This document shows, one piece after another, positions 1,256 through 2,770 of a stretch of DNA of 39,736 bases (position 1 is its first letter; the number at the start of each line of letters is the position of its first letter). The stretch covers positions 1 through 39,736 of the forward strand of contig CAZANH010000109.1 of NCBI GenBank assembly GCA_964486515.1, read 5' to 3'. Below the pieces are notes generated by a model, which saw only the letters and a list, made by a program, of their open reading frames with translations, searched no databases and was not told the origin of the DNA. The stretch is from an uncultured Eubacteriales bacterium. Lineage in GTDB: Bacteria > Bacillota > Clostridia > Acetivibrionales > CAZANH01. The position numbers and the translations under genes are program-made.

Positions 1256-1310
1256 ACTTAGACGAACTATATTCCGCAGAAGGTGCGGAGTAAAATAAGT
1301 TCTACGAAAT
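1256..1310 (+). repeat. Cassette-boundary site 1 (attC-like)
   Basis: ACTTAGACGAAC-TAT-ATTCCGCA-GAAGG-TGCGGAGT-AAAATAA-GTTCTACGAAAT; right arm identical to site 3. Confidence 0.7.
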
Positions 1311-1402
1311 GGGGGGCGTTTATCGGCGCATCGTGCGCCGGTTTGAGAAAGAAGAGCTTTGAAGAATAGTTATATAGTTCTAATAATAAGCAGGAGGGAA
1401 TT

Positions 1403-2005
1403 ATGAGAATTAATATTAATAAGTTTCTTTCATATTCTATATTAGCCGCTTTAGTAACTTGTGGAGTAGGTACATTCTTGCCTTTTCATACCGGTTTTCA
1501 CTTCATGTATTGGAGTTTGTATAGGTATTTATTACTAATTATAGTTGTAAATTTGTTATTTGTGATAATCAAAAAGTATTCAAAGGCTTATATTATTACT
1601 TCATTAGTGTTATCAGCACTTATGCTTTTCCTAGAAACAAGAATGAATTACATTTATAGTTTCAAAGTTTTTTCATTTGTTATAAGTGGAATATTTATAA
1701 CTGGTTTCATTGTTTTATTATTGTTAAAAGCAAATTGGAGTATTATATTATTGATGAACTGTGTTTTGATTTTTATATATGTTAATTGGCTTGGTTTATC
1801 ATATGTTAATCCGTTATCATCTCATTTGCCTACTCTAAGTGAAATGATTGTACAAAATATTAATGATATGTTCAGTTTGAGAGGTATTGGCTATTTTATT
1901 TCAAATATAGGCGCTATTATTGCTTTAGTCGCTGGAATAATACTAACTATATTAATTAGGCGTAACGAAGGAGAACAATTAATTACTAAGGATACAAGTT
2001 TGTAA
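1403..2005 (+). CDS. Hypothetical multi-pass membrane protein (putative cassette ORF)
   Basis: 200 aa with about 6 hydrophobic segments; RBS AGGAGG; very AT-rich; lies between sites 1 and 2. Confidence 0.75.
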   Translation: MRININKFLSYSILAALVTCGVGTFLPFHTGFHFMYWSLYRYLLLIIVVNLLFVIIKKYSKAYIITSLVLSALMLFLETRMNYIYSFKVFSFVISGIFITGFIVLLLLKANWSIILLMNCVLIFIYVNWLGLSYVNPLSSHLPTLSEMIVQNINDMFSLRGIGYFISNIGAIIALVAGIILTILIRRNEGEQLITKDTSL

Positions 2006-2046
2006 GGTCGCAGCGTCCGTGCTGCTCTTGCTTCGAGAGCTCCCCC

Positions 2047-2074
2047 ACATCATAGAACAACAGTTCTATGAAAT
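2047..2074 (+). repeat. Cassette-boundary site 2 (28-bp, 11-6-11 dif-like)
   Basis: ACATCATAGAA-CAACAG-TTCTATGAAAT with inverted arms. Confidence 0.75.
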
Positions 2075-2157
2075 CGTATGCAAAAGACGCCCCCTCCGTG
2101 GGGCGGGTTGGTAAGGAAAGGTCTCTAGAGTACTAAAATTCAGAGAATGGAGTTGAT

Positions 2158-2517
2158 GTGGTGAAGTTTATAATTAAATTACTAATGATCATTACATGTC
2201 TTTCTTTAGTAGCCTGTTCTGAAAGCAAGCATTTTGCAGAAAATGAAATGGTGGTTTTAGTAGATATTACAGATTTTAACCAAGAAATTAATACAAAAGA
2301 AAAAGCTAAGGAAATTATCTTTGAATGGCTAGAAAATGAAACTAATTTTGATTTTACCGATAATGGAATTGATAATATAAATAGGCACAAAGATTATTAT
2401 GAGATTCGATTGAAGACATCGATAAATATAAATGGGAGAGAAAGTGGTGTCATAGGCTACAGAGATTACGTAATGACTATTGATGGAAAGTTGAAAGGAT
2501 GCTACTACTCAAAATGA
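2158..2517 (+). CDS. Hypothetical lipoprotein (putative cassette ORF)
   Basis: Signal peptide with lipobox LVAC; GGAG RBS; lies between sites 2 and 3. Confidence 0.7.
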   Translation: MVKFIIKLLMIITCLSLVACSESKHFAENEMVVLVDITDFNQEINTKEKAKEIIFEWLENETNFDFTDNGIDNINRHKDYYEIRLKTSININGRESGVIGYRDYVMTIDGKLKGCYYSK

Positions 2518-2592
2518 ATACTAATTATACTATAAGTGGAGTTTGTTATTGGGGACCGCACACCGTGGCGCCTCCGAGTCATAGGGCATGCG

Positions 2593-2770
2593 ACATCATA
2601 GAACAAAGCATTCACGTTTCAGGTGTGCAAGGTCTGAGTCCAGCGGTAGTTGTTCCTGATACTGGTTTCCAGACAGCACACCACACCGATTCAATGGGTG
2701 CGAGCACCGCCAGGGAGAAGGGCTTCGCTGGTCCGGTTCGGCATCGTGAAGCCCAAACGTTCTACGAAAT
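2593..2770 (+). repeat. Cassette-boundary site 3 (long attC-like)
   Basis: ACATCATAGAAC-AAAGC-ATTCACG...GC-rich ~128 nt...CGTGAAG-CCCAAAC-GTTCTACGAAAT. Confidence 0.75.

Follow-up and report, generated by a model that had tools for sequence, protein, structure and literature searches.

To our knowledge, Firmicutes have long been held to be almost wholly without integrons. Néron et al. (2022, PMC9024848) report one complete integron in Firmicutes, that of Limnochorda pilosa, together with a few CALIN (clusters of attC sites without an integron integrase); such clusters are also reported in Firmicutes by Cury et al. (2016, PMC4889954), and Bacillota are counted among the clades "previously found without any integrons" (bioRxiv 10.1101/2024.07.02.601686). 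Here, we describe a stretch of 39,736 nt from an uncultured Eubacteriales bacterium (contig CAZANH010000109.1 of assembly GCA_964486515.1), called the window below, which is a whole contig. Between positions 1256 and 2770, it carries three attC-like junctions in a single orientation that enclose two cassettes with one open reading frame (ORF) each. These probably form a small integrase-less array of an integron-like cassette system that is found in several lineages of endospore-forming Firmicutes.

With its few sites and cassettes, and with no recombinase gene nearby or in the assembly, the window array resembles a CALIN. The related arrays of other genomes resemble sedentary chromosomal integrons, such as the Vibrio superintegron. 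A tyrosine recombinase gene lies beside an attI-like insertion point, and up to at least 14 mostly single-ORF, co-oriented and unrelated cassettes follow each other, including toxin-antitoxin and defence-type genes. Furthermore, the cassettes end in a structured 3' site with the R''-L''-centre-L'-R' layout, an invariant AAC/GTT, an unpaired spacer and a putative crossover at or beside G|TT, and the sites are homogeneous within a lineage. Since the recombinase is devoid of the insertion that defines IntI, we call the system integron-like rather than an integron. We found no published account of such arrays, or of their pairing with a recombinase, in Firmicutes, in a search that left most subscription journals outside; the supplements of PMC4889954 and PMC9024848 may list overlapping CALIN.

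Sites and cassettes of the window

An earlier note, made from the sequence of the window alone, had proposed mobile integron-like cassettes at this place. The site coordinates that it gave, the arms ending in GAAC, the inner boxes and the GTT-to-GTT spacing (764 and 696 bp) all agree with a direct reading of the window: the right arm GTTCTAYGAAAT begins at 1299, 2063 and 2759, and the inner boxes of sites 1 and 3 end 7 nt ahead of GTT. The features of the array are as follows.

1256-1310, plus strand: site 1, a short atypical attC-like junction of 55 nt with its own L box, unlike that of site 3; R'' ACTTAGACGAAC (left arm, 1256-1267), 3-nt spacer, L'' ATTCCGCA (1271-1278), 5-nt loop, L' TGCGGAGT (1284-1291), 7-nt spacer, R' GTTCTACGAAAT (right arm, 1299-1310)
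2047-2074, plus strand: site 2, a minimal 28-bp junction, ACATCATAGAAC-AACA-GTTCTATGAAAT, with the R'' (2047-2058) and R' (2063-2074) arms only and neither L boxes nor centre
2593-2770, plus strand: site 3, a canonical attC-like site of 178 bp (nhmmer E 8.9e-20, profile positions 1-180; row 1 of the family alignment A1); R'' ACATCATAGAAC (2593-2604), spacer AAA, L'' GCATTCACG (2608-2616; inner box (GC)ATTCACG), structured GC-rich centre, L' CGTGAAGC (2745-2752; inner box CGTGAAG(C)), spacer CCAAAC, R' GTTCTACGAAAT (2759-2770)
1299-2058, plus strand: cassette 1, 760 bp; ORF 1403-2005, 200 aa, hydrophobic, no Pfam family
2063-2604, plus strand: cassette 2, 542 bp; ORF 2158-2517, 119 aa, lipoprotein-like N-terminus, no Pfam family
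2759-3011, plus strand: remnant of a third cassette that has kept its 5' arm and 5' hairpin (loop ATCCGTG)
1237-1261: perfect 9-bp palindrome CTAAGTAAC-TATAATC-GTTACTTAG (7-nt loop), a minimal AAC...GTT pair overlapping the left arm of site 1
1320-1345, 2086-2108, 2012-2030 and 2555-2580: subterminal hairpins, also seen at cassette ends in loci L023 to L036 of relatives

As the earlier note had it, single co-oriented orphan ORFs stand between the sites, both being on the plus strand and without a Pfam family. Its description of the three sites as related applies to the arms, which are common to all; by profile, site 3 alone belongs to the family described below, and sites 1 and 2 are atypical, degenerate junctions rather than family members. 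Site 1 folds as DNA at -8.1 kcal/mol (z -2.84), a value equalled by 3 of 200 shuffles, and whole-site folds of site 3 are unexceptional compared with shuffles (z -1.5 and -1.6). The palindrome at 1237-1261 may be an arm-only junction like site 2, the scar of an earlier junction.

The two ends of each cassette can pair. In cassette 1, 5' GTTCTACGAAAT-GGGGGG faces 3' CCCCC-ACATCATAGAAC, with subterminal hairpins whose loops are ATCGTG (5' end) and GTCCGTG (3' end); in cassette 2, 5' GTTCTATGAAAT-CGTATGC faces 3' GCATGCG-ACATCATAGAAC. The remnant at 2759-3011 lacks both a 3' site and any ORF of at least 40 aa that runs with the array. Within it, positions 2770-2871 resemble positions 2105-2198 of contig C105 (76% identity).

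Further copies of the repeats, which the earlier note took as a check on its proposal, exist as a second array in the assembly (contig C491) and as arrays of the family in relatives. The exact right arm is found nowhere else in the assembly, its three copies in the window being the sole ones in 3,444,316 bp and 551 contigs. With up to two mismatches, it is not enriched (13 matches versus 10.7 expected; 35 of 100 shuffles as high), and the left arm gives 16 matches versus 9.5 expected (5 of 100 shuffles as high).

A family of attC-like sites in relatives

A 20-nt pattern made of the left arm and the L'' box was run on metagenomes and matched 21 loci. Four of them (L004, L008, L018 and L020; 32-37% GC) display the full architecture and provided the L' consensus, L004 and L008 being the same sequence. 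The other 17, without right arm or L' box, were dropped as chance matches. Among 149 genomes of the same order, the motif CGNGAGTGCRRRACGTT is found 30 times in three genomes (20 in G040, 9 in G027 and one in G044), where the matches are clustered and co-oriented; a reversed-pattern control gave a single match in total. The right-arm motif alone is uninformative because it is too short: its matches in 52 of 61 genomes (60 from the order plus the source genome) are at the level of the reversed control and form no clusters. A two-arm pattern matched genome contigs once, in a cyanobacterial metagenome-assembled genome (L001), which was taken as chance.

Profile searches brought the family to 90 sites in 22 sources; their boundaries follow the coordinates of the profile, adjusted to AAC/GTT by a local search. 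The array-bearing genomes hold several arrays each, and the longest one counts 14 sites in the 14.4-kb contig behind L024. Alignment A1 gathers 73 distinct sites from 19 loci. Their canonical layout is R'' (...TAGAAC), a 3-nt spacer, L'', a centre of 100-170 nt, L', a 5-7-nt spacer and R' (GTT...), that is, the layout of attC with its unpaired spacer, and AAC and GTT are invariant in all 73 sites. Canonical sites span 124-196 nt (median 171).

The two L boxes covary. In A1, 91.6% of the cells of the 9-bp L box are paired, with changes on both sides at 7 of the 9 pairs (for instance GCACTC/GAGTGC, GTGTTC/GAACAC, GCATTG/CAATGC and GCATCT/AGATGC). None of 500 shuffles reached the observed covariation score, and controls with a slid partner are 24-42% paired. 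The R and L helices were entered by hand for this test because RNAalifold gave few pairs on A1 (only five in the L box), and the covariation counts are drawn from related sequences of a few lineages.

The site centres (2617-2744 in the window) carry blocks common across lineages (for instance CACCCCAATCGCTGGG, GAAGAAGGGCTTTG and CCAGCTCTGTGG), which exceeds what the R and L helices need. They have neither an Rfam match nor a conserved reading frame.

Spo0A is encoded by all five array-bearing genomes tested and, among 14 control genomes, by that of Bacillus subtilis only. The hosts of the arrays are endospore-forming Firmicutes from several families of the class Clostridia. In L008, an apparent 3' half of a tRNA gene (2390-2445) lies between a 558-aa ORF and the array segment, which hints that this segment may belong to an island with a tRNA gene as its insertion point.

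Cassette ends and cassette content

In 60 distinct cassettes, the two ends of the same cassette form a median of 13 Watson-Crick pairs out of 18 beyond GTTA/TAAC. The two arms that face each other across one junction form a median of 6 out of 18, as do the ends of mismatched cassettes, for which 13 pairs were reached by 6 of 3540 combinations (0.17%). In the window, in C491 and in relatives alike, the 5' end of a cassette is complementary to its own 3' end and not to the arm across the junction. This is what would be expected of an integron-type cassette if the crossover lay at GTT, the start of the cassette having been paired, in the excised circle, with the site of that cassette. Arm positions 1-9 and 12-19 are paired in 82-100% of the cassettes (position 19 in 70%); positions 10-11 are a conserved mismatch, A.C at position 11 in 52 of the 60.

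Most cassettes (45) carry one ORF of at least 50 aa, 11 carry two, two carry none and two carry four or five. Their median length is about 940 bp, and 71 of their 76 ORFs are co-oriented with the array. The Pfam families of 71 cassette ORFs are unrelated and include Fic/Doc (three), Mrr (two), MazF, hydrolases, dehydrogenases, a kinase, a peptidase and others.

Short GC-rich hairpins with a TCCRTG/ATCGTG loop are found on the sense strand at the 5' end of 18 of 62 cassettes and at the 3' end of 15 of 62. Interior windows have them in 11 of 877 cases, and the reverse complement of the motif is seen at two 5' ends and one 3' end. The hairpins might be RNA elements or accessory sites for the recombinase.

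These strand-specific subterminal hairpins, together with cassette ends that are 19-nt imperfect inverted repeats and a Y1 transposase gene on contig C93 of the source genome, are what non-autonomous transposons would display, whether bounded by terminal inverted repeats like miniature inverted-repeat transposable elements (MITE) or by hairpins of the IS200/IS605 type, with a transposase encoded elsewhere. Several observations make this explanation very improbable. The inner halves of the would-be terminal repeats are specific to each cassette and yet stay complementary, which fits base pairing and not a binding site that one transposase would recognise throughout. The junctions read display no target-site duplication, and a BLAST search with site 3 and its flanks found no match in plasmid and phage collections. 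Moreover, the recurrent neighbour of the arrays is a tyrosine recombinase gene, and the 3' site moves with the upstream cassette, homology ending at AC|GTTA (see below). The earlier note had named ends of a known insertion sequence or MITE as the finding that would speak against it, and the repeats do not have the traits of such ends.

Exchange of cassettes between genomes

Genomes G040 and G027 belong to one genus and their metG genes are only 82% identical. Even so, two of their cassettes are nearly the same (1161 bp at 99.8% identity and 1270 bp at 99.7%), but stand in another order and among other neighbours. A DUF4145 cassette is also common to both genomes, with no difference in the part that was compared. 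Starting at the GTT of a cassette, identity extends through the ORF, the left arm and the whole of the following centre, and stops after ...GAGTGCGRGAC-GTTA. The site is therefore part of the cassette upstream of it, and exchange would take place within ACGTTA, as in integrons. In addition, two arrays of G040 (L024 and L025) share a cassette at 92% identity. Judged from these alignments, cassettes are exchanged between species and reshuffled in relatives, the same cassette being found in other contexts with its boundaries at the core; the comparison covers cassettes of relatives. The proposal of mobile integron-like cassettes draws its support mainly from outside the window, through the site family, its covariation, the reordered cassettes, the breaks at AC|GTTA and the recombinase gene that heads arrays in relatives.

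The exchange also bears on whether the repeats are RNA elements only (processing stems, terminators or stabilisers) that take no part in DNA mobility. Both ends of a cassette could pair with each other in a transcript, the hairpins are on the sense strand and the site centre is GC-rich and conserved. A purely RNA role would leave the reordering of near-identical cassettes between species with such divergent metG genes without an explanation; besides, folding is more favourable on the bottom strand than on the sense strand, and an Rfam scan of window positions 1-6000 (E up to 1) returned two chance-level microRNA matches only, none below E 0.64. We therefore give hardly any credence to this possibility, although the hairpins could have RNA roles alongside recombination.

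Recombinase and attI-like junction in relatives

The earlier note had placed a tyrosine recombinase beyond the window. An IntI/Xer-like gene does lie directly upstream of arrays in relatives, and none of this type was detected in the assembly of the window. The reference protein, P0001, is encoded by a 345-aa ORF of G040 (L023:7900-8937), upstream of the first cassette and in the same direction as the array. It contains the Phage_integrase (PF00589) and Phage_int_SAM_4 (PF13495) domains. Its best NCBIfam model is that of the integron integrase (TIGR02249, 226.9 bits), followed by XerA (216.4), XerD (185.9) and XerC (185.8), and its best PDB match is VchIntIA (2A3V, 151 bits versus 126 for XerA). 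Its residue patterns and the conserved residues of its family agree with the known catalytic motifs of tyrosine recombinases. P0001 and 40 relatives also have in common an additional, conserved N-terminal domain, about 65 residues long, in which one Trp is invariant; a protein atlas search with this domain gave scores of at most 0.81, which is chance level. One source gives the P0001 record a non-Firmicute order label, which looks wrong since the genome is placed in the order of the window organism and encodes Spo0A.

Full-length homologues of P0001 (43-56% identity) were found in about 13 of 401 sampled genomes of the class, often 125-300 nt from a contig end. The family comprises at least 5403 clusters at E up to 1e-60 among 8000 candidates scored, and some members from Clostridium species are named "site-specific tyrosine recombinase/integron integrase" by NCBI. 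On plasmids, only shorter relatives without the N-terminal domain were found (39-51% identity).

Seven of nine recombinase loci have 1 to 11 co-oriented sites downstream (11 in L032, 10 in L036, 7 in L023, 3 in L034 and one each in L033, L037 and L039). The other two, L035 and L038, have only 220 and 792 nt of downstream DNA, in which a cassette-like GTT start is seen. An attI-like junction is present in five loci from five genomes (L023, L032, L034, L036 and L039). The distance from the stop codon to the GTT arm of the first cassette is 67-161 nt, and 16-19 of 22 positions are paired between this arm and the first left arm. For instance, in L023, GTTAGGTGACAT-TGGTTC, 67 nt past the P0001 stop codon, is the start of the first cassette and pairs with its end GAACCA-ACATCACCTAAC. 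The attI-like regions hold repeats of the ACGAAAT / TTCCCGAA type. No attI-like point was found in the window or its assembly.

Membership of the recombinase in the Xer/IntI clade raises the question of Xer/dif modules, in which the arms would be duplex sites of housekeeping XerC/D-like recombinases and the cassettes would move like integrative mobile elements exploiting Xer (IMEX) or plasmid pdif modules. The closeness of the P0001 scores on Xer models (XerA 216 bits, XerD 186 bits) fits this idea, as do the 11-nt inverted-repeat arms, the 11-6-11 geometry of site 2 (ACATCATAGAA-CAACAG-TTCTATGAAAT), whose arms we take to resemble Firmicute dif arms, and genome G027, which has reshuffled arrays yet housekeeping-like Xer homologues only. 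Nevertheless, the arms of canonical sites are 124-196 nt apart, which leaves no central region of 6-8 bp unless the DNA folds, the spacing being right in site 2 only. There are several arrays per genome, and five loci from five genomes are headed by a dedicated recombinase gene and an attI-like junction. GC skew is positive on the plus strand along the whole window contig and C491, with no sign switch at either array, so that a placement of the arrays at the replication terminus and dif was rejected. On balance, we consider Xer/dif modules unlikely.

Proposed folding and strand choice

In the integron-like mechanism that we propose, a cassette would open with GTT and a short 5' leader, continue with an ORF (usually a single one, in the direction of the array) and close with a 3' arm whose last bases are AAC, its own attC-like site being at the 3' end. 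This site would fold as a single strand, the R''/R' helix being made of 9 bp, a conserved 2-nt mismatch and about 8 cassette-specific bp, and the L''/L' helix of 9 bp around an unpaired bubble of 3x5 nt. A tyrosine recombinase of the IntI/Xer type, for which P0001-type proteins are the candidates, would swap strands at AC|GTT, and excised cassettes would reinsert at the attI-like point just downstream of the recombinase gene. Single-strand folding is suggested by the covariation of both helices and by the distance between R'' and R', too large for a duplex core site, since the arms of canonical sites could meet only through folding.

The bottom strand may be the active one. Stability of the arm duplex favours it in 43 of 53 cassettes (p 1.5e-6), and the fixed A.C mismatch at arm position 11 becomes a G.T wobble on this strand. 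In 14 of 15 loci, the leading strand coincides with the top strand of the array. Sedentary integrons likewise lie on the leading strand, and the gene-strand bias of Firmicutes alone would give the same result. More speculatively, the N-terminal domain of the recombinase, the repeats of the attI-like regions and the TCCRTG hairpins may provide accessory contacts.

Points that weigh against an integron-like system

Several results weigh against this interpretation, and some of them separate the system from known integrons. At the level of the recombinase, P0001 scores below the TIGR02249 cut-off (226.9 versus 265 bits), and residues 242-259 (18 aa) face residues 180-239 (60 aa) of VchIntIA, so that about 42 residues are missing. 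The IntI-specific insertion is absent from all 41 aligned members of the P0001 family; it was judged by this alignment with VchIntIA, intI_Cterm being the criterion that IntegronFinder uses for the additional IntI-specific domain near patch III. Unlike integron integrases, the P0001-type recombinase carries an extra N-terminal domain and its gene is transcribed towards the cassettes and not away from them. Furthermore, G027 has arrays without a close P0001 homologue (best 33% identity).

At the level of sites and cassettes, the core consensus of integrons is rare, about a quarter of the cores agreeing with it (GTTRRRY in 20 of 81 for R', RYYYAAC in 21 of 84 for R''). The earlier note had pointed out this divergence for the window, where the core GTTCTAY does not fit GTTRRRY. 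Unlike in integrons, the R arms pair over 9+8 bp with a conserved A.C mismatch, the sites are 124-196 nt long with a conserved centre, and the arrays belong to endospore-forming Firmicutes. End pairing is poor in 10 of the 60 cassettes (at most 8 paired positions), 5 of the 76 cassette ORFs run against the array, and the preference for the bottom strand is modest for whole sites (35 of 53, p 0.014).

At the level of the window, the profile built on 54 related sites misses sites 1 and 2 and matches site 3 only. No P0001-type recombinase was found in the assembly (93.7% complete, 551 contigs). The window stretch is found in four sequencing runs from two studies; contigs of two runs bridge positions 1079-2841/2872 in the same order, and no joint was found in any of the four runs. 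The variable gene order that the earlier note looked for is seen in relatives (G040 versus G027), and the window itself shows a single order. The single order of the window is weak evidence, since rare forms, rare excision among them, would be hidden in contigs. Run contigs also show loose ends between 2232 and 3244.

Given that no P0001-type recombinase is found in the assembly, the window array is most likely a stranded, integrase-less (CALIN-like) remnant, or one moved in trans.

Surroundings of the array and rest of the source genome

The following features flank the array.

76-712, plus strand: PIN-domain toxin gene (76-531; PF01850, E 8.3e-07) and overlapping small partner ORF (515-712)
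3012-3203, minus strand: 192 bp left of a Fic/Doc-type toxin gene and its partner, with 91% identity to C44:1771-1962, where the copy is intact
3386-4534, minus strand: cotJC, cotJB and cotJA, conserved chromosomal flank (Mn_catalase E 6.1e-57; CotJB E 9.7e-22; CotJA E 5.4e-12)

The PIN toxin pair, upstream of the array, is not bounded by a canonical site according to the profile search. Downstream, the region 2771-3385 consists of the cassette remnant and the Fic/Doc fragment, which marks the end of the variable region; rpsO and then pnp follow on the plus strand beyond the cotJ genes. An apparent fourth left arm at 3053-3064 is probably due to chance, since the Fic/Doc fragment covers this position. 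Around 3012-3203, read depth is about twofold in one run and several contigs branch close by.

Contig C164 joins position 1 of the window through a 99-nt overlap. It contains no further sites, and the array therefore has just three. Reading of its translations suggests a coiled-coil ORF, a P-loop ATPase ORF and a C-terminal fragment of a large serine recombinase. Together with the PIN toxin pair, the genes of C164 suggest that the array may sit in a decayed island.

The second small array of the assembly (C491:1-1650) has HicB/HicA-type cassettes and is followed by spoIIIAA. It carries GTTCTGTGAAAT at 205 and ACATCACAGAAC at 846, and its cassette ends pair (...CAGGTGC / GCACCTG...). The site at C491:846-978 joins a GCACTC-type L'' to a GCAGATGC-type L' (in L034, the latter pairs with GCATCTGC), and its right arm is decayed (TTTAGCAAAAAT); it would be either a chimeric or a decayed site. 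Profiles of the arm, the centre and the whole site found only the copies of the window and C491 in the assembly, and the family profile gave nothing beyond three true sites at E below 1 in the 3.4-Mb genome.

The closest relative of P0001 in the source genome (C181:760-1539, minus strand, 36% identity) is devoid of the N-terminal domain. It was rejected as the recombinase of the array, the next gene encoding an IS91-type transposase. Short relatives of this C181 gene are present in several copies in genomes G168 and G152, and also on Clostridium plasmids. The best TIGR02249 score in the source genome is 107 bits. The assembly has 40 Phage_integrase matches, and in many contigs tyrosine recombinase genes stand in tandem, two to four at a time (C203, C310, C337, C152, C151, C432, C291, C435 and C304), a pattern that resembles recombinase-trio elements. 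As far as seen, these tandem genes are unrelated to the arrays.

Significance for Firmicutes

Tentatively, endospore-forming Firmicutes may have an integron lineage of their own, a possibility that we rate slightly below even odds. It would rely on an IntI-related recombinase in which the IntI helix was lost or was never present, reading the folded bottom strand of 124-196-nt sites through a 9+8-bp R-arm helix with a fixed A.C/G.T mismatch, perhaps with the help of the N-terminal domain and the TCCRTG hairpins. Integrons would then seem to be "missing" from Gram-positive bacteria for one reason only, that current detection rules rely on the proteobacterial attC model and demand the IntI insertion.

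Should the mechanism prove correct, integron-type gene capture would have a wider known range and the rules of integron detection would need revision. These arrays would also be a natural experiment on a tyrosine recombinase that reads folded DNA without the IntI helix. Moreover, the pool of accessory, toxin-antitoxin and defence cassettes of anaerobic Firmicutes would open to study, and the question of why Gram-positive bacteria lack integrons would become testable.

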